A stretch of 64,000 nucleotides of DNA, from assembly GCA_031254575.1 (NCBI GenBank), contig JAIRUE010000039.1, forward strand, positions 6,793 through 70,792. The letters run 5' to 3'. Numbering within the stretch: the stretch's first letter is position 1; each line of letters opens with the position of its first letter. Below the pieces are notes generated by a model. The model was not told the DNA's origin. It made no database searches and worked only from the letters and a program-made list of their open reading frames with translations. The position numbers were made by a program, and so were the translations under genes. The DNA comes from Oscillospiraceae bacterium (GTDB lineage: Bacteria > Bacillota > Clostridia > Oscillospirales > UBA929). Shown here piece after piece: positions 31,121 to 58,266 of this stretch.

Positions 31121-31150
31121 TAGGGGTATTTTCGAGGGGAGGGCGGCGCC

Positions 31151-32560: not shown

Positions 32561-32566
32561 GGGGGC

Positions 32567-33688: not shown

Positions 33689-33758
33689 ACACTGTGTCAC
33701 GTCAATACCCGAACTTACGGGCCGGGTTGGCCCGGACAAAAAAACGGAGGTTTACCAT

Positions 33759-34940: not shown

Positions 34941-34956
34941 AGGGGGAGCTGTTTAC

Positions 34957-36933: not shown

Positions 36934-36934
36934 T

Positions 36935-37717
36935 ATGAAGAAGCTGTTGGCTATTTACAAGACATGCGTCAAAACCGCGCTCAACAGGGCGGCGGCATAC
37001 CGGCTCAACTTTATACTGTCCTTTCTGATAACGCTTGGCTCCAATATATTGTTCCCGCTTGTAACGATTTTGATTTACAACTCGGGGGCCAGTTTCCCGG
37101 AATGGGATTTTTATGAGGTACTGCTGATACAGGCGGTCTTTACCTTATCGCACGGATTGGCTGGTATTGTCTTCAACGAGGTTTTGTGGAAAACCATGCT
37201 GCATATCCGTGAGGGGAGTTTTGAAATCGTGCTGTTAAAGCCGCTTACCCCCCTGTTTTTCCTCATATCAACGAGCTTCGAGCCTGAATTTGCCGGTTTG
37301 CTGATTGGCGGCGGCGTGATGTTCGGGATTGCGGCTGCGCATACGGGAATAGCGTCGGCGTTGGCAATCGGGCAGTTTTTGCTGTTATTCGCGGCGGGTT
37401 TCGCGGTTATGGCGGGCATAAACATGATGATGGCGGCCACCTCTTTTAAGTGGGTGGGAAACTCTCGGATACCCGAAATCTTTGAAAGCGTGAAAAATTT
37501 CGGGAAATATCCCGCCGCTGTGTTTCCGCAAATCATACGGGGGCTCGCGGCGTTTATTATTCCGGTGAGCATGATCGGATTTTTCCCCGCGGGCGCGCTG
37601 CTGGGACGGCTTGACCTGACCGCCTTTATTGCCATATTGCCTTGTTTTTTATTCATGCTGATCGGGATATGGCTGTATAATCACATGATCAGGCTTTATG
37701 AAGGGGTGGGAGGGTAA
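36935..37717 (+). CDS. ABC-2 family transporter permease
   Basis: Six-TM protein, tightly coupled to both neighbours. Confidence 0.65.
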   Translation: MKKLLAIYKTCVKTALNRAAAYRLNFILSFLITLGSNILFPLVTILIYNSGASFPEWDFYEVLLIQAVFTLSHGLAGIVFNEVLWKTMLHIREGSFEIVLLKPLTPLFFLISTSFEPEFAGLLIGGGVMFGIAAAHTGIASALAIGQFLLLFAAGFAVMAGINMMMAATSFKWVGNSRIPEIFESVKNFGKYPAAVFPQIIRGLAAFIIPVSMIGFFPAGALLGRLDLTAFIAILPCFLFMLIGIWLYNHMIRLYEGVGG

Positions 37718-40433: not shown

Positions 40434-40886
40434 TCACACCGTCCAGTCGTTTTCTTCTTTGTAGGCTACGGCTTGCTTGAACACGTCTTTCAGCGTCAGG
40501 CAAAACAACCCTAAAAGCGAAAATATGATTACAATCAAGGATGACGCGATCGTAAACCAAAAACAGATTTTCAGTAAGAATATGACCGCAATCAAAAAAC
40601 TCGCGACGGAGCATTTTCTGAGGCAGCTGACATTCGGCGCGGTAAACGGATTGCCGCCGAGCAGCGTTCTGAAGATAGCCTTCAGCTGCCACAAAAGGGA
40701 AAGCGCGCATAATCCCGACAATATCAGAATGACGGTGTACGGTATGACTATATACGGAGAATACCCCAAAAAACCGGCAAGCGCGGGCATAATAAAAGGC
40801 AGCGCGATACACCCTATAATTCCGCCGTAAAACATAATGTCAACCAGCACCTTTGTCAGATAATGTACGAAACTGTTCTTATACAT
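40434..40886 (-). CDS. DUF2975-like 4-TM membrane protein
   Basis: 150 aa, 4 TM. Its stop abuts the YozG start. DUF2975 followed by a YozG HTH is a recurrent Firmicutes pair. Confidence 0.6.
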   Translation of the reverse strand: MYKNSFVHYLTKVLVDIMFYGGIIGCIALPFIMPALAGFLGYSPYIVIPYTVILILSGLCALSLLWQLKAIFRTLLGGNPFTAPNVSCLRKCSVASFLIAVIFLLKICFWFTIASSLIVIIFSLLGLFCLTLKDVFKQAVAYKEENDWTV

Positions 40887-40889
40887 ACC

Positions 40890-40946
40890 AATGCCTCCAT
40901 AAATGATTTATGGAGGCATTATACCATGTGGCTTTTCGATTGTCAA
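40890..40946 (-). promoter_or_regulatory. Consensus promoter overlapping a perfect 31-bp palindrome (operator candidate)
   Basis: Minus strand: TTGACA (40946-40941), 17-nt spacer, TGgTATAAT (TATAAT = 40923-40918). Palindrome AATGCCTCCATAAAT-g-ATTTATGGAGGCATT at 40890-40920 spans the -10 edge, the TSS region and the SD (GGAGG). Confidence 0.65.
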
Positions 40947-41079
40947 CACTTAATTATCGAAAATCAATAATTAAATATTGATACTACTGTCCCCTATTAT
41001 AAAACGGACTGTACCGGCATGCCCGCCAGGCCCGCTTATCTTATTCGGAGTACCACAACAGCAATGATGTTATCGGCTT

Positions 41080-41301
41080 TTACCCCGCATGATGGCAGCC
41101 CGCGCCGCAGATATGCCTGTTGGGGCATTCCGGCGCTTTTTGGGAGCCTTTGAGCACCCCCGGAGCGGCTTTGTATACCGTCTGCAAGTCAAGCGACCCG
41201 CAATCGGGACAAGGAATGCGCTTCTCCGCTTTATCCGCCATAGACGCGGAGATGTTGTATTCTTTGCCGCATTTGGGACAGCGCAGGTCATAAAATGGCA
41301 T
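41080..41301 (-). CDS. FmdB-family zinc-ribbon protein
   Basis: MPFYDLRCPKCGKEY..IPCPDCGS (CxxC..CxxC). The ATG at 41301 is preceded by GGAAGGAGA. Confidence 0.8.
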   Translation of the reverse strand: MPFYDLRCPKCGKEYNISASMADKAEKRIPCPDCGSLDLQTVYKAAPGVLKGSQKAPECPNRHICGAGCHHAG

Positions 41302-41332
41302 GTCCGGTTCTCCTTCCAAAAATTATCACACA

Positions 41333-41722
41333 TCAATTTGTTTTTACATAAAACTTCCGGTTTCTCGGCGGGTCGAACTCGCAGAAGTATATCCCCTGCC
41401 ATCTGCCGAGGACGGGCTTGCCGCCCTCTATGATAACCGTTACGCTCGAACCGACGGCACTCGCTTTCAGATGCGCCGCGCTGTTTCCTTCGCCGTGACG
41501 GAATTCGGCGCGGTCGGGAAACGCCTTGTCCAGCCCGATGAGCAGGTCATGCACAACGTCCGGGTCGGCGTTCTCGTTGATCGTGACGCCCGCTGTCGTA
41601 TGAGGGCAGTATACAATGGCAATACCGTCCGTCACACCGCTTCTGGCGACGGCTTCACGGACTTGCGGCGTGACATCGTAGAAGTTTTCGCGGGGCGTGG
41701 ATAACGGGTATTCAAAGAGCAT
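41333..41722 (-). CDS. YjbQ/UPF0047-family protein (secondary thiamine-phosphate synthase-like)
   Basis: ..DGIAIVYCPHTTAGVTINENADPDVVHDL..GNSAAHLKASAVG.. matches YjbQ-family landmarks. Confidence 0.8.
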   Translation of the reverse strand: MLFEYPLSTPRENFYDVTPQVREAVARSGVTDGIAIVYCPHTTAGVTINENADPDVVHDLLIGLDKAFPDRAEFRHGEGNSAAHLKASAVGSSVTVIIEGGKPVLGRWQGIYFCEFDPPRNRKFYVKTN

Positions 41723-41812
41723 TGTCAGATTCTCCTATCATTCATGCCAATCAGCATATCAAAAACTGTGTCCCGCGTCTATAAAAAGTATTTGCGGGGC
41801 GTGGCCGGTGTT

Positions 41813-43735
41813 TCACGATCCCTCGACCATCCATACCCTCATGCCGCCGGACTGACGGTTACTCCAGGCATAGTATGGCACGGCCCGCAGAGTGACCGGT
41901 TCCCCCTCCGGTAAACCGGCGCTGTAAAGGGAATTTGTGCTGGGTATCCGGACGCCTTCCGTTTCTATAAGGTAAACGCCGCTGTTCGCAATGCTGCCGG
42001 GTTTGCAGACAAGGGCGGAACCTCGGGGCAGACGGAGCGCGGCGAGGCCGCCGCCGTTGTCCGTTTCCTCAAAGCAATAGACGACCGGGCCGCGCGTCAA
42101 AGCCACACAGCCCGCGGCGGCGCGCACGTTTGCGTTGGCGTACATACGGACGGGTTCCATCTCCAGATGAACGTCCACCACATCCCCGTTCCGCCATATG
42201 CGGTCAATATATGCATACCCGTCCCGCGGTATTGTTTTCTCCTCTTTTCCGTTTACCGTTACCATCCATCTTCCGCACCAGCCGGGTATATGTACGGCGA
42301 AGAAAAAGGAAACGTTTTCATTTTTAGGACGGACAGTATAACGGACATCTCCTTTCCACGGGTATCCGGACTCGCAGTCCACGGTTATGCCGCCCGCCTT
42401 GGAAAACCGCGCCTGACCGCCCAGATAGATGTGGGCATATATACCTTTTTCACTTTCACCCCAGGCATACTGCCCCAATGAGGCGATCAGCCTTGCCAGG
42501 TTAGGCGGGCAGCAGGCGCAGCCGTACCATTCCGGCCTTCGCGGCAGCGCGTGCCTGTATTCCGGCAATACGCCCGACACATTTGGTACGGTTTCGAGCG
42601 GGTTGACATAGAAAAACCGTTTGCCATCCATCTGCATACCGCTCAATATGCCATTGTACAGTTCCTTTTCCAGAATGTCGGCATATTCGCCCTTCGGACA
42701 CAGCTCCAGCATCCGCCGGGCAAAGAACGCCATACCGATAGAGGCGCAGGTTTCGGCGTAAGCAAGGTCGTTCGGCAATTCGTAATCGGAAGAAAACGCC
42801 TCGCCGTGGACGGTGGAACCGACACCGCCGGTGATATACATACGGCGGTCAACAATGCTGCGCCACAGGTTTCCGCAAGCATCCGCCAGTTCCCTGTCTT
42901 CTGTCAAGGCGGCCAGTTCCGCCATAGCCGTAACCATATAGACCGCCCGGACGCTGTGCCCTGCGGCGTCCTTTTGCTCTCTTACCGGCAGATGGCGCTG
43001 ATTATAGGAAGGCTCCTGCTCCCGCGACCAGTGGAACCAGCCCCGGTTTTTGATTTCCCCGGAAAGGACCTCGGGGGTTCGTCCCCGCTCGTTGATAAAA
43101 TACAGGGCGGTGTCCAGATACCGTTTTTCGCCTGTCGCCTCATACATCCGCAGAAGCCCCAACTCCACTTCCTGATGCCCCGGCACGCCCCGCACCTGTC
43201 CTTCGCCCGTGCCGAAGCGGGCGCAGATCAGATCGGCGTTTTTGCGCATGACCGACAGAAAACGGTCTTTCCCTGTCGCCTGCCTATAGGCAACCGCCGC
43301 CTCCATCATATGCCCGGCGCAATACAGCTCGTGGCACTCGGCAAGGTTTTGCCATTTATGTCCGGGTTCCTTCAGGGTGAAGTAGGTGTTCAGGTATCCG
43401 TCCGGCTCCTGCGCCTGTTCTATCAGCGCAATTAACCCGTCCGCTTTTTCCTCCAGCGCCGCGTCTTCCTTCAGAGCCAGGGCGTACGCCGCCGCTTCCA
43501 GCCATTTGGCCAGATCGCTGTCCTGAAAGACCATGCCGCGGAACTCCCCCTCCGCTTTTCCGGCGGCGACGCGGAAATTCTCTATGGCGTGGCTTTTGTC
43601 CATACCCTCAACCTTATCATCCATAACATCATATTGATATGGGATCACGGTCTCCATGACCAACTGCTGAACAGGCGACCAGAAACCGTCGCGTATCGTA
43701 ACGGCTTTGATATTCAGGGTTTCCTGCGTTTTCAT
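41813..43735 (-). CDS. Glycoside hydrolase family 127 (beta-L-arabinofuranosidase, HypBA1-like), cytoplasmic
   Basis: DGFWSPVQQLV.., HELYCAGHMMEAAVAY, AYAETCASIGM and WYGCACCPPNLARL (the CC codons are at 42509-42514). No signal peptide. I prefer the ATG at 43735 over the GTG at 43744 on RBS spacing. Confidence 0.85.
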   Translation of the reverse strand: MKTQETLNIKAVTIRDGFWSPVQQLVMETVIPYQYDVMDDKVEGMDKSHAIENFRVAAGKAEGEFRGMVFQDSDLAKWLEAAAYALALKEDAALEEKADGLIALIEQAQEPDGYLNTYFTLKEPGHKWQNLAECHELYCAGHMMEAAVAYRQATGKDRFLSVMRKNADLICARFGTGEGQVRGVPGHQEVELGLLRMYEATGEKRYLDTALYFINERGRTPEVLSGEIKNRGWFHWSREQEPSYNQRHLPVREQKDAAGHSVRAVYMVTAMAELAALTEDRELADACGNLWRSIVDRRMYITGGVGSTVHGEAFSSDYELPNDLAYAETCASIGMAFFARRMLELCPKGEYADILEKELYNGILSGMQMDGKRFFYVNPLETVPNVSGVLPEYRHALPRRPEWYGCACCPPNLARLIASLGQYAWGESEKGIYAHIYLGGQARFSKAGGITVDCESGYPWKGDVRYTVRPKNENVSFFFAVHIPGWCGRWMVTVNGKEEKTIPRDGYAYIDRIWRNGDVVDVHLEMEPVRMYANANVRAAAGCVALTRGPVVYCFEETDNGGGLAALRLPRGSALVCKPGSIANSGVYLIETEGVRIPSTNSLYSAGLPEGEPVTLRAVPYYAWSNRQSGGMRVWMVEGS

Positions 43736-44098
43736 CCCTGTCACTTCCCTTCCGATGGTAGCGAGTTTCGCCCGCGCATAGTCCCACCGGGCCTGCGGCG
43801 GGACATAAAAGACGTTTTCGGCGACGGGTCGTCGGGATTCGCCCCAGCATAATCATCCTCTTGTATGTCGGTGTCTGGGACACATTATACAATAGATTGC
43901 GTAAACCTGCAAGCGCGAAAGCGGTCCCGCACTTGCGGAACCGCTTTCCCATTCTAAATGATTAGTCGTAAATCAACTCGCCGCGAATAATCTCATCGGC
44001 ACAAACGGCGATATTGTTCATTCTGCCAACCCACAGCATTTTTGTATAAGTATGATTGGGAAGATATCAGTTCCATAAAAGCCCGCGCAAAATTCCTA

Positions 44099-44107
44099 TG
44101 GTAGAAT
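44099..44107 (+). promoter_or_regulatory. Extended -10 promoter candidate for the giant-protein operon
   Basis: TGgTAGAAT in an AT-rich 445-nt intergenic region. No good -35. Confidence 0.3.
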
Positions 44108-44189
44108 CATACTAATCGAGACTGTCAAAGAGGCTTCTTTTTGTAGGTTTCGTCCAGAACAACAATCAAAATAAAAGGAGAGATATGTC

Positions 44190-47100
44190 ATGAGGAACAG
44201 AGCCTTCAAGAGACCGGTGAGTCTGGCGCTGAGTTGCTTTATGGCGGTCGGGCTGTTTTTCGTCACGACGGAGCCGGAGGTGATGCGGGCGTACGCCAGC
44301 GGCACGCCAAGCCCCGACGACTATAATTCGCTCCTATACGAAATGAGGTTCGCGCCGGGCGCGGAGCTTACCCCCGAATACGCCGCGTGGAAGCAATCCG
44401 GCGAGGCGGCGCAGGACGACTCCACATGCCTGCAGCTTGAAGACGGCGGCAAAGCCGAATCCAAACCCCTGACGGTCGGGAGCGGGATGGGCGTTGTTGT
44501 GGACTTCCAGTATAAACCTACCGGTTCCTCCAACAGCGCCATCACGCTGAAAGGCTCCGGCAGCGCGGAATATGTACTTACGGTTCGAAACACGGGATTT
44601 ACCGTGACAGGAGGCGGGCAGCCGGGCGGTTTTGCCACCGCGTTTGCTCCGGGCGGCGACGGTTTTTCACCGAAATTCACCGCCGAATTTATTATAAGCG
44701 GAGGACAGGTCACAGCCGAGATATTCAACGCCTCCGGAGACAGCATAGGCAAAACGGGCAATTATCCTTTCCCGGACGGTACTTTGAACGTAATCCTCGC
44801 GGAAAACGGCGGGAGCTCCCGCTACACCTTTCTTGACGCGTTCGGAACAGCCGGCACAAGGGTGTTGGCGGATATAGATTTTTCAAACGAGGGAGAAACA
44901 AACCTGACGGACGCGGGCTGGAGTTTTAACGGAGGCGGCACCGAAAGAGGCTTCAATTACTCGGGCAAACCGTTGGGGCTTTACCTTACCGCCCCCACAT
45001 CAGGCGGCGGCGGCAGCGCCCTATCCCCCAAGTATGACGCCAGGCACGGCCTGACCATAGAGACGACGTTTCAAGTTGCGGACGTACCCGGCAACCGCGG
45101 AGCCAACTTCAGATTGATCGGTCCCACCAAAGGGGGGAACTGGAATGAACCTTTCCTTGTCGTATTATCTAAAAACGGCACGGGCGGCTGGATTACATTC
45201 AGAACGGAACCGGGCGTTAACCAAGGTGAAATACAAAGCCCCGCTACCAATAATATGACCTATACCGGCAATACCTTTTTACCGGCGTTAAAAGCGGTGA
45301 TCACGGTTGACGGCGGAGGGGCGAAGGTCAATGTGACCAATGCCCCTAATTCATTTAACTGGAACGCGAATAACGGAAACGCGTTTTCTTTGCCCGCGTC
45401 CGACCTCGGCCAGCTTCAATTTACGATGTGTGAGGTCGACGGCTGCGGGGCGCAGACCGTCTGGCAGACCTTTAAGGTGACGCAGAACCGGGGCGCAAGC
45501 GCCCTGCTGAGCGCGTTCAAAAACAAAACCGCTACGACCGGGACCGAAGGATGGGCGCTGACCGGAGCCGCCGATGTAAAACCGGTAGACCCGGCAGGCA
45601 CACATTTTCTGCAAAACGGGCTTCATCTGACAGGCGCCCAACGGGCGGTATCCCCCGCGTTAAAAAGTATCCTCCCCACGGACGCGCTGAAAGACGGCGC
45701 CAAGGTCGTCGTGGAATTTGACTATATCCCCGCACCGGGGGATGTGATGACGTCGCAGGTCGCGCTGCGGAACGCGGCCGGCACGAACGACGCTTATTAC
45801 AGCAGTTCAACCTGGAAAGGTAACTCTCTGGACTCAAACGGGTTTAAGAGCGTTGTGAACGGAGGCAGCTTCCAAACGCTGCCGCATGACTCCAAAGTAC
45901 CCGGCGGCGGCGACCATTATTACAACCACGGCGTCAATCCGGCCCCAGGTGATTTCTCAAAGAAATACAGGGTGGAATTAACGGTCATCGGAGGCTATTA
46001 CTATTACGTTATGTATGATGAAAACGGAAACGTCTTCTGGGACAGGAACAATGACCCCTACACTCTGAACGGCCTCGACGTCGGCGACATGGTCGTGTGC
46101 CTTGAGGAGACGGGAAACGGCGGCCAGTCGAGGGTTACCCTCGTTCAGGTCTACGGCCTGCCGGAACACAGGCATGATGAGTGGCAGCCGGTGTTTCTGG
46201 ATCTCTTCTCCGGCTCCGCTTTGGACGCAAACAGGTGGACCGGCGCGGCGGCTGTCGGCGGCGGCGGGCTTACGCTCGCGGCCGGGCAAAAGATCCTGTC
46301 AAACATGACGTTCAACGCCCAGGACAACCTGCGGATCGTGTTTGACCTGGCTTTGCCCGCGTCCGCGCAGGGCAAGATCGGACTTATCACCGAGGGGCTC
46401 GCGAACGATCTTTTCGCGGGCCTGAACACGGGAGATTTTGTGGCGTCGGCAAGCTCTTCGGTCACGATCGGAACAGACAGACTGTTTGCGTGGAACAAAA
46501 CGGTCAATGTCAGGATCGACATTGTCAACGGAACCGCGACCGCCGCCGTCTTTACTCCCGGCGGATTGCAGCTGTGGAGTTCCGAGGCAGTCTCCGCCGG
46601 CGCGAACAGCAACGTGAAAATCGGCTTTGAGGCTCTGTCCGGCACAAATACCGCGAAATTCAGCAACCTCATCGTGTATTCCGGCGCGGCGGGCGCGGAG
46701 CAGGATTACGATTGGTATGAGCTGTATAAGAACTTTACAACCGTTTTGGAATCCCCCACTACCAATAACGTGACAAACCTCACAACCGATATGAACACAA
46801 CCGCCGCCGCCGCCGGCCGGCTTTCATGGAATAAAAACGGCTTGTCTAACGCCTCCATTTCCACCAGAGGCGAAACCATCGGCACCACGCTGGGACGGCT
46901 CGGCAAGTTTTACGGCGACGCGTGGCTGCGGATTGAAAACAGCCAGTGGATCATGTCGCGGGAGAACCTGACAGTCGCCGATAATCTGCTGATCATGTAC
47001 GACTTCATACCGGACGGCGCGGAGAGCAGCCAGGAAGCGCCGGGCTTTGTCGCGGAGAACGCGGCCAATGGCAACCGGGTGCTGTACGCGGGCATCGTAC

Positions 47101-49487
47101 ATCCGGGCTTCGCGGTCAGGCCCGGCGGCGGCATCGCCCCCTATTCCATACCGGATGGGAAACCGGCGACCAGCAGCTATTCAAGGACCCGCGACGGAAC
47201 GCCCGGACTGCATAACGGCTGGGTCGTCACGGTCCAGATAGAGATCGTCTTCAACATAGCCACCGTCAGGCTCATCGGCAACGGCGGCACGCTTCTGTGG
47301 GAATCCGGCAAGGTGCCGGTCACCGCGGACACGATCAGGATAGGCTTTAATAACGCCGATAATACGGGGTCTTCCTATTTCAACAACCTGAGGGTGTATA
47401 CGGGTAAAGTAACCGCCGGGAAGGGTCCGTATAATCTTAAACCCGGCAGGGTCGAAGACCCCATCGCCATTCCCTCGGACCCGTTTGACTGGGACGCCGT
47501 ATACGATTATTTAGACGAAATAGACGCCGCGCAGAGTAGCCAGAAGTCACTGCTGGCGTCCGGCGGCACACATTACTCCGACACCATACCCGATACGGTG
47601 GACCTCGCGGCGATGGCCGCCCGCTTCTCGGTGGGGCTGACCAATATGCTGATACTGCCGAATTCAGACGGCGGGGAAGCGAACGAAGGAAACGCGGTAT
47701 CGACATCAAACGGCACCAAAGTCAGGCTGTATATGCCCTATGGGATCGGTAACTTCACTCTCAACGGCGGCGGCGGTTTCACCAACTCCTACATAGGCGG
47801 AAGCGCCGGCTGCTGGCCCAAGGATCTGGAAGCCATCGTGCTGATGAGGAATATAGCCGGTGATTTCGGCACCTGGGGCGGCTTCACGTCAGCCGACGAC
47901 ACGAGACACAGGGATAACCTGACCCTCAAGGCGATATTGGAATACTCCCTGGAGGAAGAGATGGACCTTCTGCGCAGGGCCGACGGTTCGATGAACCGGA
48001 TACAGCTCGCGCTGACCAGTATCTATCAAGTCAATCCCTCGGCGGAGCTGAAAGACCTGCTCGATGAAATAAGCATCGCGATGCGGAAGAACGCGGTCGA
48101 GGAGTACGACTACGCTTACGCTTACCCGGACTGGAACCACACCGTGAACTACAGGGGTTATGAGAGCAACTCCTTTACTATGTTCGTCAACGGAGGCATG
48201 GCCCGTTCCCTGACACGGTGGTCTTCCAACGGCAATAACGGGTACGCAGACGGCCTGGACCTCGCCGGTAAACTGGCGAGAAGCGTTTTGCTGCCCCAGT
48301 TCTGGAAGCCGGATTTCACCGCCGATTGGAGAAACACCACCGCGCAGCGCAAGGCTGTGGACGAACAGCACAACGCGATCTACGACGGTCATTTCCATCA
48401 GTATTTCGTAGCGGCCACGGGCCTGCTGCGCTACGCGGAGGAGACACACGATATCCGGATGATGGAATATGTCCGGGATCTTTATGAATACTCCAAGAGC
48501 TTCGGGCTTTCCAACATCGGCCTGTACGGCGAGGGCTGCGGCCTGGGCGACATGCTCCTGCTGGCCACCCAGCTCACCAGGAACGGCGTGGCCGACTACT
48601 GGGACGATATAGACCGCTATATCCGCAACATGGTGGTGGAAGCCCAGATCGACGCCGCGAGACTGCAGGCTTCCGTGAACGCCAGAAGCGCAGCCTCTGC
48701 CCAGTCCGAATTCACTAGTACCGCCACTTACAGCAACGGCGTTTGGGGCCCAAGAACCAGCGGAAGCGTCAGTCCTGTCGTGCAGAGGGCGGACGGCCTT
48801 GTGTGGGGCGGCATAACCTACCCGACGCATCTCCCGCAGCACAACATGGAGTGGATCGCCTGCTGCCCGGGTAACTTCCCGCAGGGCATGTACTACGCGT
48901 GGTCCTCCATCGTCACCGAGGAGAACGGCGTCGTATCGGTCAATCTGCCGCTGAACAGGGCGTCGGAGTGGCTGGATGTCGACAGCTACATCCCCTACGA
49001 GGGCAAGGTGGTGCTTAAAAACAAGACGGCCCCGACGGTGGCGTTCCGCGTACCCGACTATGTAAATGACCGCTTTTTAGTGACGGCCAAAGTCAACGGC
49101 GCCGAAAAAGCGATCAAATGGACCGGTTCCTATATCTACATAGACGGACTCAGCAACTCCGACGTGATCACCATAGAATTCCCGCTGGAACAGTGGACGG
49201 AGACCCGCACGCTGATGTGGGCCAGGGACGACCAGCGCAAGGAAGCCACCGACCCGGGGTGGAAGAATACCAATAATACTGGCCTCTGGTCGAACAGCAA
49301 CCCCGATTCGTTCACGTTCACATTCGTGGGCAACACCGTAATCGACGTCGCCGGGGGAATTGCCGCCAATGCGAGTGACTACAGGTTCTTCCAGCGGGAT
49401 ACCATGAAAGCCGCCGTTAACAGTCATGCCTCCGCGCCGATGAAGACGGTAACCCGGTTTGTGCCGAACACCATCATCACATGGTGA
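44190..49487 (+). CDS. Giant secreted protein 1 (1765 aa): signal peptide, five divergent beta-sandwich (LamG/ConA-like) modules, GH127-like core
   Basis: RBS AAGGAGAG. Signal peptide ..CFMAVGLFFVTTEPEVMRAYA. Five modules of about 180-230 aa, each ending in a recurring strand pattern. The C-terminal 670 aa carry EGC (48531-48539) and ACCPGN (CC at 48861-48866) plus a beta-sandwich resembling the neighbouring GH127. Confidence 0.8.
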   Translation: MRNRAFKRPVSLALSCFMAVGLFFVTTEPEVMRAYASGTPSPDDYNSLLYEMRFAPGAELTPEYAAWKQSGEAAQDDSTCLQLEDGGKAESKPLTVGSGMGVVVDFQYKPTGSSNSAITLKGSGSAEYVLTVRNTGFTVTGGGQPGGFATAFAPGGDGFSPKFTAEFIISGGQVTAEIFNASGDSIGKTGNYPFPDGTLNVILAENGGSSRYTFLDAFGTAGTRVLADIDFSNEGETNLTDAGWSFNGGGTERGFNYSGKPLGLYLTAPTSGGGGSALSPKYDARHGLTIETTFQVADVPGNRGANFRLIGPTKGGNWNEPFLVVLSKNGTGGWITFRTEPGVNQGEIQSPATNNMTYTGNTFLPALKAVITVDGGGAKVNVTNAPNSFNWNANNGNAFSLPASDLGQLQFTMCEVDGCGAQTVWQTFKVTQNRGASALLSAFKNKTATTGTEGWALTGAADVKPVDPAGTHFLQNGLHLTGAQRAVSPALKSILPTDALKDGAKVVVEFDYIPAPGDVMTSQVALRNAAGTNDAYYSSSTWKGNSLDSNGFKSVVNGGSFQTLPHDSKVPGGGDHYYNHGVNPAPGDFSKKYRVELTVIGGYYYYVMYDENGNVFWDRNNDPYTLNGLDVGDMVVCLEETGNGGQSRVTLVQVYGLPEHRHDEWQPVFLDLFSGSALDANRWTGAAAVGGGGLTLAAGQKILSNMTFNAQDNLRIVFDLALPASAQGKIGLITEGLANDLFAGLNTGDFVASASSSVTIGTDRLFAWNKTVNVRIDIVNGTATAAVFTPGGLQLWSSEAVSAGANSNVKIGFEALSGTNTAKFSNLIVYSGAAGAEQDYDWYELYKNFTTVLESPTTNNVTNLTTDMNTTAAAAGRLSWNKNGLSNASISTRGETIGTTLGRLGKFYGDAWLRIENSQWIMSRENLTVADNLLIMYDFIPDGAESSQEAPGFVAENAANGNRVLYAGIVHPGFAVRPGGGIAPYSIPDGKPATSSYSRTRDGTPGLHNGWVVTVQIEIVFNIATVRLIGNGGTLLWESGKVPVTADTIRIGFNNADNTGSSYFNNLRVYTGKVTAGKGPYNLKPGRVEDPIAIPSDPFDWDAVYDYLDEIDAAQSSQKSLLASGGTHYSDTIPDTVDLAAMAARFSVGLTNMLILPNSDGGEANEGNAVSTSNGTKVRLYMPYGIGNFTLNGGGGFTNSYIGGSAGCWPKDLEAIVLMRNIAGDFGTWGGFTSADDTRHRDNLTLKAILEYSLEEEMDLLRRADGSMNRIQLALTSIYQVNPSAELKDLLDEISIAMRKNAVEEYDYAYAYPDWNHTVNYRGYESNSFTMFVNGGMARSLTRWSSNGNNGYADGLDLAGKLARSVLLPQFWKPDFTADWRNTTAQRKAVDEQHNAIYDGHFHQYFVAATGLLRYAEETHDIRMMEYVRDLYEYSKSFGLSNIGLYGEGCGLGDMLLLATQLTRNGVADYWDDIDRYIRNMVVEAQIDAARLQASVNARSAASAQSEFTSTATYSNGVWGPRTSGSVSPVVQRADGLVWGGITYPTHLPQHNMEWIACCPGNFPQGMYYAWSSIVTEENGVVSVNLPLNRASEWLDVDSYIPYEGKVVLKNKTAPTVAFRVPDYVNDRFLVTAKVNGAEKAIKWTGSYIYIDGLSNSDVITIEFPLEQWTETRTLMWARDDQRKEATDPGWKNTNNTGLWSNSNPDSFTFTFVGNTVIDVAGGIAANASDYRFFQRDTMKAAVNSHASAPMKTVTRFVPNTIITW

Positions 49488-49503
49488 GGCCGGAGGAACA
49501 GAG

Positions 49504-52500
49504 ATGAAGACTTTCGCAGAAAGGCGGATGAATAATATGAAAAAATATATGAAGGGCGTATTATCTCTTGTGGTGGCGTGCTGTATGATCCTTTCCAACA
49601 CCGCTCTGGCCGCTCTGAACGACTTGCTTGACGACGGAGCCGCCGCCGCGAGCGCGGATTGGACCGACCCGGCAAAACTTGGCGACTATATCCTCGGCGT
49701 CACCGTGCCGGACACGCTGGACCTCGCCGAGCGCGGAGCGCTGGCCGTTCAGGGGCTGACGGCAAAAGCGGCCCAGCCCGGCGGCGTTACCGGCGATGAT
49801 CTCGCAAACGTCCTGGACGCCATCGTCAAGGGGCGCAATATGTCGGGCAGTAATGTGAATTTAGCCGGCGACACAGCCATTATAACAGCCTTGACCGGCT
49901 ATCTGAAAGCATCGCCGAACACCAAAGCATTGAGCGAGGGGATGCTGGCTTTGCAGGGCCTGTATAACCTCTATCCCACAAGCGCCGTGGAGGCGATCCT
50001 TAACGGGATAAACGACGCGTTGCTCACCGGGAGCGTCAATACCGCCGGAAACGCTAGCTATACCGCGCGCGGTTTCCAAGGTTACAGCGAAGCTGTTTCC
50101 GTCAACGGGGCCGCGCTGCGGGCGGTCAGCTCGTGGGCGGGCTTTGACGGCGCCGCGGGCTTGAAAACCGCAAATGTGACAAAATACAGAAACGCGATTC
50201 TGACGAAAGCATATTGGGAGGCGGAAGCAAGGCCCAGAGTGGTGGTCGACGCGGAATTGGCGCGATTCAACGGCAACATGGGCGCCTACGCTTCCGCACT
50301 GCTGGGGCTGCTCACTTACGCGGAATACTCCGGCGACACGAGTCTGTTAAATTACGTGCAATCAGGCTATAAGTTCATCCGTGAATACGGCCTCAAATCC
50401 ATCGGTCTGTTCGGCGAAATTTGCGTGACCGCGGAAATGACCCGGCTTGCGCTTAAGCTGAGCCTGATGGGAGTGGGCGACTACTGGGACGACGCGGAGC
50501 GATATATCCGCAACGAACTGGCCGAAAAGCAGGTCACTAGCGGATCCGATACCGGTCTGTTTTACTCCGCCTCCGGCTGGCCCACGCATCTCACGGCGCA
50601 GAACGATGAAGTCGGCATACGCTGTTCGGCGGCGGCCGCACAGGCCATGTACGACGCGTGGGAATCAATCGTCACCGGCGACAAGGACATGGCGCAGGTC
50701 AACCTGCTCCTGAACAGGTCTTCCTGTCTGCTGGACGTACACAGCTACCTGCCTTATACCGGCAGAGTCGAGTTGGCTGTCAAAGACGCCAAAGCCGTCT
50801 CCGTCCGCCTGCCCCTGTGGGTGGACTGGAAAACAGTCAGCGTGGCGGGCGCGGGCTATGGCAGGGTAGGGCATTATCTCATACTGACCAATCTGTCTCC
50901 CGGCGCCAATATAAGCATTACCTTTGACCTGGCGGAGCGGACCGAACCGCAGATACTAAAGTGGAAGGAAAGCGATCCGTTTTACAACAGCACGCTCCCG
51001 GGCGCTTCCTGGATACCCGCGGATCCTAAAAATAAGTTTGACTTCACATTCAAAGGCTACACATTAGTCGAAATCCGGCAGACCGCCGGCGTAACCGCGA
51101 CCCCCACAAACATCCTCTTGTATCAGGGGAGGGGCGGCTCGCTTCCCTCGCCGAAGACGGTAGACCGCTACATCCCTTATCACACGGTGAGTGAAAGACC
51201 TGTCAAGGACGATTACCCCGGGGCTCCGCTGACGGTCAGCGACGTCGTTCCCGCCGGTCAAACCACCGCAGGCAAGACGCTGGCTTTGCCCGCGCTGCCC
51301 GACGGGGCGACATACCCCGCAAGCGGCACGGTTGGCGGCACGGGATTGATTGCATCTCACAGCATAGCGGGCACAACGCTGACATACGGCACGACCAGCC
51401 AAAGCGACGGTACGACTGACACCCTCACCATAACTGTTTCCAACGCGACACACTATAAACCTTACGATGTGGTCGTGACCGTCACCGCGGTACCTTTGGA
51501 GCCGCAAACCATCACGTTCGGGACGACGCCTGCGGCGGCGACCTACGGCGATGTCTTCACACATACGGCGGCGCTTCAAGGCGCGGGCGGTACGGGCGCG
51601 ATCACTTACGCGGTCACAAGCGGCCCGGCGGCGGTAGACGTCAATACCGGCGAAGTGACCGTCACCGGCGTCGGCCTCGTCACGATCACAGCGACAAAGG
51701 CGTCGGACGCCACCTATGCCGAAACGACAGCCGTCTACAGCTTCATGGCCGGCTCCAAAACGCTGACCGTCACCGGGCTGACGGCGGCAGACCGCCCCTA
51801 TGACGGAACGACAGCGGTTGGAGTGACGGGCGGCGCGCTTGACGGCGTGGTATCGCTTCTTGATGACGTGGATTATACGCCCGCTATCAGCGGCGGCGAC
51901 ATAGCCGACGCAAACGCCGGGAACAACAAGTCCGTAACCGTCGCCGCGATCTCGCTGACCGGCGCGGACGCGGGCAAATACACGCTGACGCAGCCGACGG
52001 GCATAACGGTGAATATTACGCCGAAGGACATCGTCATCGACACCGTCGCCGCGCCGACAAAGGATTGGGACGGCACGGCCGCGGCGTCGGCGGGCGCGGT
52101 CACGTTCAGCGGAGAGATCACGGGGCAGGCGCTGACGGCGGGTACGGATTATACCGTCAGCGTGGTCTTCACGGACGGCAGCTATGACGCGGGAACCGGC
52201 AACAGGCTCTACACCTACACGGTGACAATGCTGAACACCACCAAAGCCAACAACTACAACTTAACACCCCACACGAAGACAGGCACGGACGGGACAATCA
52301 ATAAGATTTCCTATCCCGGGGCTCCGCTGGCGGTCAGCGACAGTGTCAGGGCCGACGAAGCGGCAGCGGGCAAAACCGTGGTCTTACCCGGGCTTCCGGC
52401 AGGGGCGGGTTACACGACTGTCGCGGTGGGCGGTTCCTCGGGGTTGATAGACGGTACGCCTACGGTGTCCGGCACAACGCTGACATACAGCACGACCAGC

Positions 52501-54300
52501 CAAAGCGACGGCACGACGGACACCATTACCATAGGCGTCACCGGCGCGACAAACTATGACGATTATTCCGTGGTCGTGACCGTCACCGCGCAGACTGTTC
52601 AGCAAGAGGACGTTCCTGCCGCGACAATTGACTATATGAATGAACAGCTCACCGGGCTCACCGCGAACGCGGCCTATACGGTAAACGGAACGGCGAAAAG
52701 CGCCAATGCAAGCGGCAAAATTCTTATTGACGCGGCATGGCTGGGACAGGGCGTCAGCATTGTCAAAACAGGCGTGGCCGCCGCAGGCACGGCTGACAGC
52801 GATCCGCAATATTTCACAATCCCGGCGCGTCCAAACGCGCCGGCACCCGGTAAGACCGACACGGCGGGCGGCGGCAATAACGGCTCAATTACCGGCGTTG
52901 ACGGCACGATGGAATACAGATCAGGCTCCAGCGCCTGGACGGCTATCGCCGGCACATCGGTGACGGGGTTGGCGGCGGGGACTTACAGCGTGCGTGTAAA
53001 AGCCACGGCAACCGCATTTGCCGGTGTGTCCGCAAGTGTGTCAATCGCTCCCAGCAGCGGCGATAGCGGTTACACACCGCCCCCGCAGGGCGGCGGCACG
53101 CCGCCCGTGACCAATCTCCCCACCGTCCCTGTCAACGGCGGCGCGGTGCAGGTGAACTATGCGCAATCGGGCGGAACCGTGACGCTTACCCTGACCGACA
53201 GTAAGGTAGAGGAGATCATCGAAAAAGCCAAAGACGGCGAAGCGGTCCTCGACCTCACCGGCGTGAAGGGCGCGGAGACCGCCGTCCTCGACGTCAACGC
53301 GGCCAAAGTCTTCAGCGAAGCGGAGGTCGCGGTTACGGTGAAACTCCCCGGCGCGGACGTTACCCTCGTCCCCAAAACCCTGGCCAAACTAGCCGCCACG
53401 ACGGACAATGGCAAAACGCCGGTCACGGTGGAGGCGAATACCGTGCCGGTGACAGACCTCAACAGGATGCAGGCGGCGCAGGTCAGGGGATACGAACCGG
53501 TCGTCAACGTGGATGTGTATGTGGGCAGCAAAAAGATCGACGTCCCCATCACGACCAGCCTGCCCTACAAACTCAAGACAGTCGAGAACCCCAAAGCCGT
53601 CTGCGTATGGTACCTGAACGATATGGGCAACATCAAGAAACTGTACGGCGCGTATGACGAAAAGACGGAGATGATCACATTCACGGTGGACCACCAGGGC
53701 TACTTCGTGGTTGGGTACGACCCGGTGGCGCTGTGGGAGAACAGGTTCACAGACGTCAGCGAAGATCACCCGTTCTATGACGCGATCGCCTACGCCAGCT
53801 ATTACAGCGGCAAACTGTTTGCCGGCACCAGCGACACCACCTTTGACCCCGACGGGGTCATGACGCGCGGCGACTTCATGACGGTGCTGTATAAGCTGGC
53901 GGGGCGTCCCGCGTACAGTGAGGGCTACCGGAACTTCGGCGACGTGAAAGCGGGCGACTATTACTACGACGCGATCCTGTGGGGGGCGAACACCGGCATT
54001 GTGGCCGGCAAGGGCGGGGACAGGTTTGCCCCGTCTGACGCGCTGTCCCGGCAGGAAATGGCGGTGATCCTCTATAAGTACGCGGCGAAGGTGGCGGGCT
54101 ACGTCATTCCCGAATACCGCGGGGCGCAGACATTTGATAAAGTGGACGGCTGGGCGGCAACGCAGACCGGGGCGCTTGGCAAAGCCGGGATGCTGACGAG
54201 CGGCGGGTCCGACCTGACGGAGTCCGCCTCCCGCGCCGAGATCGCGCGGGTGTTTATGGACTTTATTCGGTTTGTCGTCGCTTCAACCTCTGACCGTTGA
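49504..54300 (+). CDS. Giant secreted protein 2 (about 1598 aa): signal peptide, GH127-like core, Ig-like and MBG(YDG)-like repeats, three SLH domains
   Basis: GGAGGA lies 7 nt before the ATG at 49504. Signal peptide ..VVACCMILSNTALAA. The core is paralogous to protein 1 (GDYWDDAERYIRNE). Repeats with PYDGTTAV / KDWDGTAAA. C-terminal SLH triplet from 53746 (FTDVSEDHPFYDAI.., FGDVKAGDYYYDAI.., FDKVDGWAATQ..). Confidence 0.8.
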   Translation: MKTFAERRMNNMKKYMKGVLSLVVACCMILSNTALAALNDLLDDGAAAASADWTDPAKLGDYILGVTVPDTLDLAERGALAVQGLTAKAAQPGGVTGDDLANVLDAIVKGRNMSGSNVNLAGDTAIITALTGYLKASPNTKALSEGMLALQGLYNLYPTSAVEAILNGINDALLTGSVNTAGNASYTARGFQGYSEAVSVNGAALRAVSSWAGFDGAAGLKTANVTKYRNAILTKAYWEAEARPRVVVDAELARFNGNMGAYASALLGLLTYAEYSGDTSLLNYVQSGYKFIREYGLKSIGLFGEICVTAEMTRLALKLSLMGVGDYWDDAERYIRNELAEKQVTSGSDTGLFYSASGWPTHLTAQNDEVGIRCSAAAAQAMYDAWESIVTGDKDMAQVNLLLNRSSCLLDVHSYLPYTGRVELAVKDAKAVSVRLPLWVDWKTVSVAGAGYGRVGHYLILTNLSPGANISITFDLAERTEPQILKWKESDPFYNSTLPGASWIPADPKNKFDFTFKGYTLVEIRQTAGVTATPTNILLYQGRGGSLPSPKTVDRYIPYHTVSERPVKDDYPGAPLTVSDVVPAGQTTAGKTLALPALPDGATYPASGTVGGTGLIASHSIAGTTLTYGTTSQSDGTTDTLTITVSNATHYKPYDVVVTVTAVPLEPQTITFGTTPAAATYGDVFTHTAALQGAGGTGAITYAVTSGPAAVDVNTGEVTVTGVGLVTITATKASDATYAETTAVYSFMAGSKTLTVTGLTAADRPYDGTTAVGVTGGALDGVVSLLDDVDYTPAISGGDIADANAGNNKSVTVAAISLTGADAGKYTLTQPTGITVNITPKDIVIDTVAAPTKDWDGTAAASAGAVTFSGEITGQALTAGTDYTVSVVFTDGSYDAGTGNRLYTYTVTMLNTTKANNYNLTPHTKTGTDGTINKISYPGAPLAVSDSVRADEAAAGKTVVLPGLPAGAGYTTVAVGGSSGLIDGTPTVSGTTLTYSTTSQSDGTTDTITIGVTGATNYDDYSVVVTVTAQTVQQEDVPAATIDYMNEQLTGLTANAAYTVNGTAKSANASGKILIDAAWLGQGVSIVKTGVAAAGTADSDPQYFTIPARPNAPAPGKTDTAGGGNNGSITGVDGTMEYRSGSSAWTAIAGTSVTGLAAGTYSVRVKATATAFAGVSASVSIAPSSGDSGYTPPPQGGGTPPVTNLPTVPVNGGAVQVNYAQSGGTVTLTLTDSKVEEIIEKAKDGEAVLDLTGVKGAETAVLDVNAAKVFSEAEVAVTVKLPGADVTLVPKTLAKLAATTDNGKTPVTVEANTVPVTDLNRMQAAQVRGYEPVVNVDVYVGSKKIDVPITTSLPYKLKTVENPKAVCVWYLNDMGNIKKLYGAYDEKTEMITFTVDHQGYFVVGYDPVALWENRFTDVSEDHPFYDAIAYASYYSGKLFAGTSDTTFDPDGVMTRGDFMTVLYKLAGRPAYSEGYRNFGDVKAGDYYYDAILWGANTGIVAGKGGDRFAPSDALSRQEMAVILYKYAAKVAGYVIPEYRGAQTFDKVDGWAATQTGALGKAGMLTSGGSDLTESASRAEIARVFMDFIRFVVASTSDR
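51211..51490 (+). repeat. Intragenic repeat copy A (about 93-aa module)
   Basis: DDYPGAPLTVSD...GTTLTYGTTSQSDGTTDTLTITV...YDVVVTVTA. Long DNA identities with copy B, for example CCCGGGGCTCCGCTG(A/G)CGGTCAGCGAC and ACGACCAGCCAAAGCGACGG. Confidence 0.8.
52309..52590 (+). repeat. Intragenic repeat copy B (about 93-aa module)
   Basis: SYPGAPLAVSD...GTTLTYSTTSQSDGTTDTITIGV...YSVVVTVTA. See copy A. Confidence 0.8.
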
Positions 54301-54419
54301 GATTTCAGTGTTTTCAAGCCTTGCCCGAATAACTTTTTACCTCTTTGGTCTTTAGTTGGTCATTGTTTTTTACTGGTGGTTAGTGGCAGTTACCGCTAAC
54401 CACCGTAAACTATTGCAGG

Positions 54420-54686
54420 TCAATGGCACTTGCTATCGCTTCCATAGTACGCGCCTGTGCGCTCTTGAAAGCGTGTGAGTATATGTAATGACAAAAATTT
54501 TGCCCCTAAAAAGGAATTAGCAAGAGGTGATTTGATTTCGTATTTTTCCGTAGGCCGGATGTAATACGCCGCGAGCTGTTTACTTGAAGTCATATATACA
54601 AGCGGCTGTTTCAGGTTCGACCACGGTTTTACGAATGGCTGCAACTTCGTCAGGCCACCAACGGAACTCCCATGATAAAAGGTCAT
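54420..54686 (-). CDS. Hypothetical protein (N-terminal MTFYHGS.. motif), possibly truncated
   Basis: 88-aa ORF with an ATGA overlap to the upstream ORF. The tail looks non-native (..FLSLHILTRFQERTGAYYGSDSKCH). Confidence 0.35.
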   Translation of the reverse strand: MTFYHGSSVGGLTKLQPFVKPWSNLKQPLVYMTSSKQLAAYYIRPTEKYEIKSPLANSFLGAKFLSLHILTRFQERTGAYYGSDSKCH

Positions 54687-55277
54687 AACCCACGCTCCTT
54701 TTCAGTCCGCGATAAATCGTTGTTAAGCATGTTCTGATGGATTCTTTCCATCCAGTATGTCGAGAGTATTTCACCGTACAGCTTTGATTTTTTATTTTCC
54801 CCGACATTCATATGCCCTCCGAATATTACATAGCTATCGGGTTTTTCTGTAATCAGGTGTGGCGGGAAATTATATCGTCCCCTCTCGTTTTTATACTGGT
54901 CAAGATACCGAAGCGCAAGAGAGCACCTTTTCATAATCGCGGAAATGATAAATCCTTCCGAAACCAGACTCGTCAGGTGGGGTTAATTGAATGTGTTGAT
55001 TCAGAAACCGCAGAATAAATTCCATTTTTTCAGCAAAAGCGGAAATCTCGTTCGACAATCCTAAAATCCAGCATTTCCCCAAAATGTTTTCCATACGGTA
55101 ATCATGGCTCCCGTGGATGTCGCCAATATTATCCGTCTGCGAACGCTCCGCAAGGCGCGACAGCCAAACCGACACCTCACCATTTTGAAGCAAGGATTCT
55201 GGAGCTTCAGTGGGTTTTTCGAGAATGTAGCTTATAGTCACGTCGGCGTTTTCAAGTAGCCATTGACGATTCGTCAA
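54683..55277 (-). pseudogene. Hypothetical gene split by a frameshift (ORFs 54900-55277 and 54683-54934)
   Basis: Two same-strand ORFs in different frames overlap by 35 nt. Both have protein-like composition. The first overlaps the MBL gene stop by 4 nt. Confidence 0.45.
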
Positions 55278-57192: not shown

Positions 57193-58266
57193 ATGATGAA
57201 AGGAAACGTAAAGCCTTTGGGCAGAACCTGGCTTGACGGGGACAACATCCTCTGGTGCGGGTTGTCGGGGAGCGGGATTGAGTTTGAGATAAGCGCGTCA
57301 AGGCTTGAATTAACCCTCGCGGGCGACAGCGGCGCAAACCCGAACAACAAAGACGGCAACGCAAGGTTTGCCGTTTATGTCAACGGCGAGCGGGTGATCG
57401 ACGAGCAGATTGACGGCAAGGAAAAAAGCTGTGTTGTTTTTGATACGCAAACCGCCGCCAACGTCAAGCTCATAAAACTTTCCGAATCCGCAAACTCCGT
57501 TTTCGGAATAAAGGGTATTGCCTCGGAAAACTGCGTAAGCCTGAAACCCGCCGATAATAAACCGTTACTGATCGAGTTTATCGGCGATTCCATCACATGC
57601 GGATACGGCGTTGACGACGAGGTGAAGGAAAACCATTTTTCCACGTCAACCGAGGATATAACCAAAGCGTATGCGTATAAAACGGCTGAAAACCTGAACG
57701 CCGACTATTCAATGGTGTCTTACAGCGGATACGGCATCATTTCCGGGTATTCGGACGACGGGCGGAAATCAGTCAATCAGTTGGTGCCGGAATACTACGA
57801 TAAAACAGGGTTTTCTTACGGTTCGGCAAACGGCAGGAAACTTGAAACCGTCCCTTGGGACTTTTCAGTCCGGCAGCCCGGCATCGTTGTTATAAACCTT
57901 GGCACGAACGACAGCAGTTATACTAAAAACGACCCCGAAAAGTGCGCGGAGTATCAGACGGAATATACGGCATTTTTGAAAGCCGTCCACGAGAAAAACC
58001 CTGACGCAAAAATCATCTGCTCACTGGGGATAATGGGTCAGGATCTTTATACATACATGGAAAACGCGGTTTCTGACTATTCGCGGGAAACAGGAGACGA
58101 CAATGTATCCTGTTTCAAGTTTGATGTTCAGGATATGGCGGCCGACGGTATCGCCGCAGACTGGCATCCGTCGGAGAAAACCCACGAAAAAGCCGCTCGG
58201 AAGCTGGCAAAAGAAATTGCAAAACTATACGGATCGTGTTATTCTATTATTAGCCGGACTGAATAG
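57193..58266 (+). CDS. SGNH/GDSL esterase with CE2-type N-terminal beta-sandwich (acetyl-xylan/glucomannan esterase-like)
   Basis: LGRTWLDGDNILWCGLSGSGIEFEI (CE2-like N-domain), block I IEFIGDSITCGYG, block III VINLGTNDS, block V DWHPS. No signal peptide. Confidence 0.8.
   Translation: MMKGNVKPLGRTWLDGDNILWCGLSGSGIEFEISASRLELTLAGDSGANPNNKDGNARFAVYVNGERVIDEQIDGKEKSCVVFDTQTAANVKLIKLSESANSVFGIKGIASENCVSLKPADNKPLLIEFIGDSITCGYGVDDEVKENHFSTSTEDITKAYAYKTAENLNADYSMVSYSGYGIISGYSDDGRKSVNQLVPEYYDKTGFSYGSANGRKLETVPWDFSVRQPGIVVINLGTNDSSYTKNDPEKCAEYQTEYTAFLKAVHEKNPDAKIICSLGIMGQDLYTYMENAVSDYSRETGDDNVSCFKFDVQDMAADGIAADWHPSEKTHEKAARKLAKEIAKLYGSCYSIISRTE

Follow-up and report, generated by a model that had tools for sequence, protein, structure and literature searches.

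To our knowledge, zinc-dependent glycosidases with a cysteine nucleophile are known from two CAZy families only, the glycoside hydrolase (GH) families GH127 and GH146. The activities of these families comprise retaining beta-L-arabinofuranosidase as well as 3,6-anhydro-D-galactosidase and aceric acid hydrolase. The catalytic machinery of their clan, GH-P, consists of a Cys3-Glu zinc site and a cysteine nucleophile; in Bll3HypBA1 (GH146), zinc is bound by E723, C725, C804, and C805, and catalysis relies on E694 and C804 (PMC10850190). The GH127 enzyme HypBA1 homodimerises via beta-sandwich 2, and HypBA2/HypBA1 is a precedent for an extracellular enzyme that feeds an intracellular GH127 (PMC10850190). 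Here, we analyzed a window of 64,000 nucleotides (nt) of contig JAIRUE010000039.1 from an Oscillospiraceae bacterium (assembly GCA_031254575.1), in which two adjacent genes encode large proteins with predicted signal peptides: protein A (44190-49487, plus strand, 1765 amino acids (aa)) and protein B (49504-54300, plus strand, 1598 aa), as taken from the open reading frame (ORF) map and the translations. Each contains a core of ~600 aa, termed core 1 in protein A and core 2 in protein B. We propose, at a probability of roughly 0.55, that the two genes encode a two-part surface machine, in which a secreted zinc-cysteine glycosidase is docked on an anchored pseudoenzyme.

The ORF map bore out the gene layout claimed in an earlier note on this DNA, and the motifs quoted there were all found in the translations. 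The ATG codon of gene B lies 16 nt past the stop codon of gene A, with GGAGG 8 nt upstream of it. Based on this spacing and the GGAGG motif, we consider genes A and B to form an operon. The two cores are true paralogues, as had been claimed: BLASTP aligned them over 499 columns with 30% identity (E-value (E) 6e-56).

A remote kinship of both cores with GH127 had also been suggested, and the evidence from profiles, structure, and active site agrees on it. Core 1 gave a marginal BLASTP match (E 1e-4) to the GH127 encoded next to the operon, spanning ACCPGN/ACCPPN and the following beta-sandwich, and core 2 gave none. Single-sequence searches of the PDB with the cores returned no match. A 6-sequence profile (A1) found HypBA1 as its top PDB match (E 0.005) in three collinear stretches, with GEsC placed on G-E338-T-C340 and CC on C417/C418; no PDB sequence was closer than HypBA1 by any search. 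When a 40-sequence family profile was aligned with the local GH127 using hhalign, the probability was 94.6% (E 6.9e-8, 391 columns), and the family hidden Markov model (HMM) gave genuine GH127 ORFs 30-47 bits. Three of the four landmarks that had been paired by eye between the GH127 and the cores were reproduced by hhalign (ETC/EGC, CACCPPN/ACCPGN, and DCESGYPWKGDV/DVDSYIPYEGKV), but the pairing of HELYCAGHMME with HFHQYF was wrong: the former pairs with core 1 residues ~197-210, and HFHQYF pairs with the histidine of 'AAGHSVRAVY' in GH127. The Pfam search suggested at the same time, with the GH127/DUF1680 models, was negative, as neither core matched PF07944, PF20736, or PF20737 even at E<=1. 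Relatives likewise stayed below threshold with the GH127 Pfam models, apart from isolated PF20736 scores just above the cut-off. Among 40 family members, weak matches to PF20736 (24/40) and PF07944 (9/40) were observed and no other family recurred; none of the members examined reached the Pfam threshold for the catalytic domain.

The AlphaFold2 model of core 1 (predicted local distance difference test (pLDDT) 82.8, predicted template-modelling score 0.89) comprises an alpha-helical barrel followed by beta-sandwiches. Structural similarity to the (alpha/alpha)6 GH127/146 fold had been named as a check, and a Foldseek search of the PDB with this model returned GH146 or GH127 structures for all of the top 21 matches (E 2.8e-12 to 9.6e-9; template-modelling (TM) score ~0.45; ~12% identity; 600-710 aligned columns, mostly ~700). 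The next fold appeared only at 1e-4, about 4 orders of magnitude weaker, and the weaker matches include (alpha/alpha)6 epimerases. A LanC-like or other zinc-cysteine fold was also considered and rejected, as none was present among the best 50 of 615 matches (E to ~0.012). Taken together, the sequence profiles, the predicted structure, and the active site indicate that both cores are distantly related to the GH127/GH146 fold of clan GH-P; for core 2, the fold is extrapolated from its paralogy to core 1. The clan features of fold and zinc site were found together in core 1 only, the zinc site by alignment.

The putative active site of core 1 is complete, with H1401, H1403, E1433, E1448, C1450, C1558, C1559, and N1562 all in place; the alignment pairs E1448/C1450 with E338/C340 and C1558/C1559 with C417/C418 of HypBA1. 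The family behind this site is large: word-indexed searches from core 1 found five relatives only, and an exhaustive HMMER scan against 1.84 billion cluster representatives (clusters at 50% identity) matched 1868 proteins at E<=1e-3, with a weakest tail that probably includes true GH127s; 1280 of the matches reached E<=1e-10, and 572 reached E<=1e-30. With positions given in core 1 numbering, the site residues kept among 156 sequences were E378 in 134, C380 in 133, C488 in 133, C489 in 126, H331 in 137, H333 in 132, and E363 in 113. The four putative zinc ligands and the neighbouring histidines are kept at homologous positions in ~85% of members, and the cysteine triad reads CCC in 227/265 sequences. 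In a few others, the triad is replaced by Asp-Asp-Asp (6/265) or Gly-Asp-Gly (7/265), with H331, H333, and E378 kept (P0004; L192:3530-8233). An Asp at Cys488 is what the nucleophile position of a glycosidase would be expected to show, and these lineages may have switched from zinc-cysteine chemistry to a carboxylate nucleophile.

Core 2 differs at most of these positions. The changes are H331 to N, H333 to G, E363 to K, C488 to R, and N492 to A, and only E378, C380, and C489 are kept. Core 2 therefore lacks the nucleophile cysteine, both histidines, and the candidate acid/base glutamate, a putative counterpart of E322 in HypBA1 and E694 in Bll3HypBA1, which is also lost in P0004 (G). The site is altered in every member of the B clade as well, with the patterns NGYKECRCA, DSYEDCDCQ, DSYEDSDSQ, QSYEDDTTI, SSYEDDATL, and HPYEDGSAA. 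As these patterns vary from one B to the next, the former site residues appear to be released from selection. The idea of a pair of enzymes is thus not supported, and core 2 is, judging from its residues, most likely a pseudoenzyme.

The proposed two-part machine is further supported by the recurrence of the pair. The closest relatives of core 1 (P0001, P0002, P0005, P0007, and P0008) all carry the full site HHYEECCCN, and each clade-A gene has a B partner, either downstream or fused (6/6). Directly downstream of A, at a distance of 0-16 nt, B follows in the window and in loci L001, L002, and L211. In L001, B begins at the stop codon of A, shares 45% identity with core 2 (E 1e-137), and carries the site DSYEDSDSQ; this pair is smaller, with proteins of 894 aa and 583 aa. 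In L002 and L211, the B gene starts 15 nt after A, and the contig holds only the N-terminus of B, with the B signature VPDTLDLAARGALAVQG. P0007 (with a 92% orthologue in L167) and P0008 are single-polypeptide A-B fusions, in which a signal peptide and N-terminal modules are followed by core A (HHYEECCCN) and then core B (SSYEDDATL or HPYEDGSAA). At locus L162, a B-type gene (QSYEDDTTI) has two neighbours, a SASA esterase and a family gene outside clade A whose site, HHCEECCCN, is nearly complete. A neighbour-joining tree (no bootstrap) separated an A clade from a B clade, suggesting that the A/B duplication predates these lineages. The L001 pair is directly followed by a gene (10501-11697) whose product, of 398 aa, has DUF4082 and Lectin_like domains; it has no equivalent in the window and could be a third, glycan-binding component.

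The anchors follow the same division. Wherever enough sequence was at hand, in a survey that left out P0008 and P0060, B was found with an anchor: SLH domains in the window and a lipobox cysteine in L001, L002, L211, and P0014. The P0007/L167 fusion has a hydrophobic C-terminal tail after its B half. No anchor was found on A in the window, L001, or L002. The suggestion that the pair is extracellular and that the second protein is wall-anchored thus looks right, given the SLH domains of protein B and signal peptides judged by eye. These Sec signals show n-, h-, and c-regions and AxA sites, and relatives have clear lipoboxes.

Outside its core, protein A consists mainly of modules that look beta-rich and lectin-like by eye and sequence pattern and possibly bind glycans. 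Of the five putative beta-sandwich modules noted earlier, self-BLAST demonstrated a relationship for modules 4 and 5 alone (residues 702-832 and 921-1072; E 2e-10). This N-terminal region is 28% identical to the N-terminus of P0005 over 551 aa, and both proteins share the mature N-terminus PSPDDY. It had no Pfam match, searched within the whole protein and as five pieces, and no PDB match using phmmer; an AlphaFold model of residues 38-1095 from a 4-sequence alignment was unusable (pLDDT 33). Pfam found nothing on protein A as a whole, and NCBIfam found nothing relevant on A or B. In protein B, Pfam confirmed the previously noted YDG pair and SLH domains, and these were its only matches. The two YDG domains lie at about residues 752-930 (PF18657, 3.9e-23, two stretches), and two 88-aa repeats of the stalk (residues 568-654 and 934-1021) are 58% identical by self-BLAST. 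For the SLH region, matches to structures of the Sap SLH domain (6bt4 and 3pyw) span ~155 residues.

These observations suggest the following model. An ancient duplication within an unnamed family distantly related to GH127/GH146 would have given rise to A and B. Protein A would be secreted and present ~1060 aa of modules that possibly bind glycans and, after these, a core competent for catalysis, in which Glu1448, Cys1450, Cys1558, and Cys1559 are predicted to hold Zn2+. As a retaining glycosidase, this core would use Cys1558 as its nucleophile and probably Glu1433 as its acid/base. Protein B would have the same fold with the site lost, on an immunoglobulin (Ig)-like/YDG stalk whose SLH triplet is predicted to bind a wall polymer. 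By analogy with the HypBA1 homodimer, from which an A/B heterodimer could have evolved in a simple way, B probably docks A via the beta-sandwich domains. The active subunit would thereby be kept at the surface of the cell, and a non-catalytic binding cleft may be a further contribution of B. The substrate would presumably be a nutritional glycan, and a furanoside is possible by analogy; the more specific proposal of a beta-L-arabinofuranoside is pure analogy and unsupported.

The family extends well beyond this pair. A typical member has ~630 aa, and among the matches listed the source name, where given, was always 'hypothetical protein', most having no name. A full-text literature search found no paper describing the core family or a GH127-type pseudoenzyme pair. 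The cores lie outside the curated Pfam and NCBIfam families, and a prior classification in CAZy is conceivable. Among GTDB species representatives, 538 family loci were found, and the best 80 of these are nearly all from metagenome-assembled genomes (MAGs) of Hydrogenedentota, Planctomycetota, Sumerlaeota, Chloroflexota, Acidobacteriota, and relatives, with Bacillota accounting for 1/80; several copies per genome are frequent. These species representatives contained no sequence closely related to core 1 or to the P0014 clade. Signal peptides occur in about half of the members with a complete N-terminus. Some are of the Tat type (P0017, P0038, P0049, and P0069; PF10518 in 2/40 members), as would suit a protein exported in a folded, metal-loaded state. 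Another ~35/118 (~30%) lack an N-terminal extension and appear to be cytoplasmic. Accessory domains include an N-terminal module of ~250 aa (motif ENWxSGxIDxxRW), PG_binding_1, FGE-sulfatase, and the SASA carbohydrate esterase, and fusions of the core to the last three occur in different lineages (P0124, P0036, P0050, and P0061). A SASA esterase is fused to the core in P0061 and adjoins a family gene in L162. Tandem arrays of 2-3 family genes with all sites intact are common in MAGs of Chloroflexota, Sumerlaeota, and Acidobacteriota (L005, L013, L029, L037, L048, L053, and L081 among them). More than one ORF matched the family profile in 24/81 loci, some being fragments of one gene. Repeated local duplication is thus a trait of the family.

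The coordinates of the features at the locus are listed below. In the divergent intergenic region, a promoter and terminator scan found nothing above the shuffle expectation and no consensus promoter, and Rfam gave zero matches in the whole window. The three genes are flanked by two stretches of ~1 kb (40813-41812 and 54301-55273; GC 0.51 and 0.44) without a confident gene, which contain only overlapping ORFs of 110-134 aa. The sole ORF of these put to Pfam (41070-41402) had no match, and Rfam had none either. Further downstream, 3-8 kb from the operon, a CE2 acetyl esterase (57193-58266) and a GH5 cellulase-family gene (62244-63236) form a loose carbohydrate context. Upstream, DUF4358, MBOAT, DHHW, and two beta-lactamase-family (penicillin-binding protein-like) genes at 30494-36111 are followed by an ABC-2 exporter (36115-38703), and this cluster looks like a system that O-acylates and exports glycan or peptidoglycan. 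Within 40 kb lie three large hybrid histidine kinases with PAS/GAF/Cache, HisKA, HATPase, and receiver domains (21699-25586, 26227-29256, and 58410-61133); no cognate DNA-binding regulator was found among the ORFs scanned at ~19-63 kb.

Features of the A/B operon and the adjacent GH127 gene (positions refer to the window)
Feature	Coordinates	Strand	Description
Canonical GH127	41813..43735	-	640 aa; PF07944 2.6e-111, PF20736 9.9e-21, PF20737 7.3e-24
Divergent intergenic region	43736..44189		454 nt, 47.6% GC; AAAGGAG ribosome-binding site before ATG 44190; from sequence
Protein A Sec signal peptide, predicted	44190..44297	+	MRNRAFKRP...MRAYA, then S; judged by eye
Protein A N-terminal modules	44298..47474	+	~1060 aa; beta-rich, lectin-like by eye/sequence pattern
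Type-A core	47475..49487	+	(alpha/alpha)6 barrel with a pair of beta-sandwiches, full putative zinc site; AlphaFold, Foldseek, hhalign
Core 1 codons, putative zinc site	E1448 48531-48533; C1450 48537-48539; C1558 48861-48863; C1559 48864-48866	+	Putative zinc site
Protein B Sec signal peptide, predicted	49504..49611	+	...ILSNTALA, then A; judged by eye
Type-B core	49681..51189	+	Core 1 paralogue, degenerate site; BLASTP 6e-56; B clade in neighbour-joining tree
Protein B stalk	51190..53733	+	88-aa repeats, YDG domains, Thr/Ala-rich Ig-like segments
SLH triplet, cell-wall anchor	53740..54297	+	PF00395 7e-20, two stretches and a third degenerate motif

Several points weigh against the proposed docking of an active A on an inactive, anchored B. 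The clade-A protein P0001 has a lipobox of its own, and A is thus not always anchor-free. Because core 2 keeps three of the four zinc ligands, residual metal binding or a changed activity is possible. In the hhalign alignment, the near-invariant Y362 lies opposite E322 of HypBA1, and the candidate acid/base E363 is adjacent, one column off. Tandem pairs elsewhere in the family usually keep both sites intact, so tandem duplication alone does not imply a complex. A Pfam search of 125 flanking ORFs from 79 loci showed no dominant partner (PhyH 5, URO-D 4, BNR_2 4, and SBP_bac_1 3), and no conserved partner, transporter, or regulator was present among these flanking genes across the family. Finally, no family member has been characterised or has a solved structure, and sequence searches of the PDB reach only HypBA1.

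Among the alternatives, the one that fares best is that the A/B pair remodels the cell's own envelope, e.g. a secondary cell-wall polymer or an S-layer glycan, and does not act on food glycans. The SLH anchor of protein B and the lipoprotein nature of its relatives would suit this function, as would the PG_binding_1 domains of some family members and the MBOAT/DHHW/beta-lactamase-family cluster 6-13 kb upstream in the window. The L001 pair lies amid genes for FemAB, a Polysacc_synt flippase, PBP5, a PGA_cap/Peptidase_M15 protein, and a Mur ligase, and these cell-wall biosynthesis neighbours and the PG_binding_1 fusions hint at the cell's own envelope. However, such a cell-wall context was seen at one locus only, and the ~35/118 members that appear cytoplasmic do not fit it. 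SLH- and lipid-anchored nutritional CAZymes (carbohydrate-active enzymes) are common in Clostridia, and the SASA esterase fusions and the downstream CE2 and GH5 genes suit nutrient glycans equally; these esterases and GH5 hint at nutrient glycans. We therefore regard an envelope function as unlikely.

It is also improbable, and in our view ranks next, that the GH-P fold and its cysteine-zinc site serve another chemistry, such as that of a lyase or an epimerase, thiol transfer, or pure binding, and that neither protein is a glycoside hydrolase. The lack of a characterised member, the ~12% identity to GH127/146, the Asp-Asp-Asp and Gly-Asp-Gly lineages, and the weaker matches to epimerase folds leave room for this. 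On the other hand, the retention of zinc ligands and neighbouring histidines across most of the family, the strong fold matches, which are all glycosidases, and the carbohydrate-esterase fusions argue for a glycosidase, and the change of Cys488 to Asp is as expected of a glycosidase nucleophile.

The neighbouring GH127 had been given a role in the system, with both giant proteins releasing oligosaccharides that it would finish in the cytoplasm. This GH127 has no signal peptide, and its HGEAF, AETC, and GCACCPPN motifs and catalytic glutamate are intact. It is a common gene in Clostridia, with relatives at 564 loci, the best of which (65% identical) is from Massiliimalia. In 80 GH127 loci from other Clostridia, no core-family gene was found within 10 kb (0/80). 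Conversely, the related loci L001, L002, L162, and L167 with their flanks contained no GH127 among the called or Pfam-scanned genes, small flanking ORFs of L167 being left out, and no extra core-family ORF turned up in them. The grouping of GH127 with A and B, for which a synteny survey had been suggested, thus does not recur in the related loci surveyed. Base composition does not set the three genes apart either. The bulk GC of 42-54 kb exceeds that of its flanks, and the GC content at third codon positions (GC3) of the GH127, A, and B genes (0.67-0.77) is inside the range of other window genes. By this measure, they are not marked as a co-transferred island, and the idea of a horizontally acquired island was rejected. 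As there is no recurring GH127 neighbourhood, no unusual GC3, and no conserved transporter, regulator, or partner, a pathway from A/B to GH127 is conjecture, and the GH127 is probably an unrelated neighbour outside the A/B system. Least probable of all, then, is the scheme in which both proteins are active and release beta-L-arabinofuranosyl oligosaccharides for the GH127: the adjacent, divergent genes, the intact GH127, the GH127/146-like cores, and the HypBA2/HypBA1 precedent (PMC10850190) speak for it, but core 2 has lost the predicted catalytic residues, neither survey of neighbourhoods linked the two, the locus has no transporter, and at ~12% identity to GH127/146 the transfer of a substrate by analogy is weak.

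Returning to a secreted enzyme docked on an anchored pseudoenzyme, a broader proposal can be put forward tentatively, at somewhat less than even odds: the cores would constitute a third GH family of clan GH-P, of zinc-dependent cysteine glycosidases, in which a Clostridial or gut-associated subclade has become an obligate heteromer, its catalytic subunit held at the cell surface by a dead, anchor-bearing paralogue. If true, this third, far larger, and almost wholly uncultured family would widen the reach of zinc-cysteine glycosidase chemistry and provide a function for >1000 protein clusters (50% identity) that are unnamed or called 'hypothetical protein', many of them in poorly understood glycan-degrading phyla. 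The conserved A/B pairing, with occasional fusion, would be a concrete, testable case in which a pseudoenzyme has been recruited to serve as a scaffold on the surface, and the window proteins or the smaller L001 pair are ready constructs for testing this idea. We know of no precedent among CAZymes for the tethering of an enzyme by a pseudoenzyme.

Compared with known systems, core 1 resembles HypBA1 of Bifidobacterium longum (GH127; 3WKW, 3WRE, and 7EXU) in its (alpha/alpha)6 barrel with a pair of beta-sandwiches. The Glu-x-Cys, Cys-Cys, and 'GH'-motif histidine align, the first beta-sandwich weakly matches PF20736, and the HypBA1 homodimer formed via beta-sandwich 2 is a plausible ancestor of an A/B heterodimer. 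In contrast, identity is ~12%, the window cores have no GH127 Pfam match at E<=1, the acid/base region is spaced and flanked differently, and HypBA1 is a cytoplasmic, single-domain protein; no catalytically dead partner is known to us for GH127. The GH146 enzymes (BT0349 and Bll3HypBA1; 6YQH, 5OPJ, and 8K7X) are the best Foldseek matches of core 1 (E 2.8e-12, TM ~0.47) and share the Cys3-Glu zinc site, here by alignment, and the clan GH-P features. Bll3HypBA1 is also large and multimodular (crystallised construct aa 380-1223). However, GH146 is a different sequence family, monomeric and with other accessory modules, and we are aware of no paired pseudoenzyme for it. The beta-galactosidase LacLM, one of the heteromeric glycosidases with split or paralogous subunits, is an enzyme whose subunits are encoded by two adjacent or overlapping genes. 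The A and B genes are likewise adjacent, the binding of their products being our proposal, but LacLM is not a pair of enzyme and pseudoenzyme, and neither of its subunits is an anchor. In SLH-anchored multimodular GHs of Clostridia, a Sec signal, a catalytic module, and Ig-like spacers are combined with an SLH triplet at the C-terminus, which tethers the enzyme to the wall. The A/B operon encodes the same set of parts, the Sec signals being judged by eye; unlike in those enzymes, the SLH polypeptide bears the dead module, and the predicted active module resides on a separate, anchor-free polypeptide.

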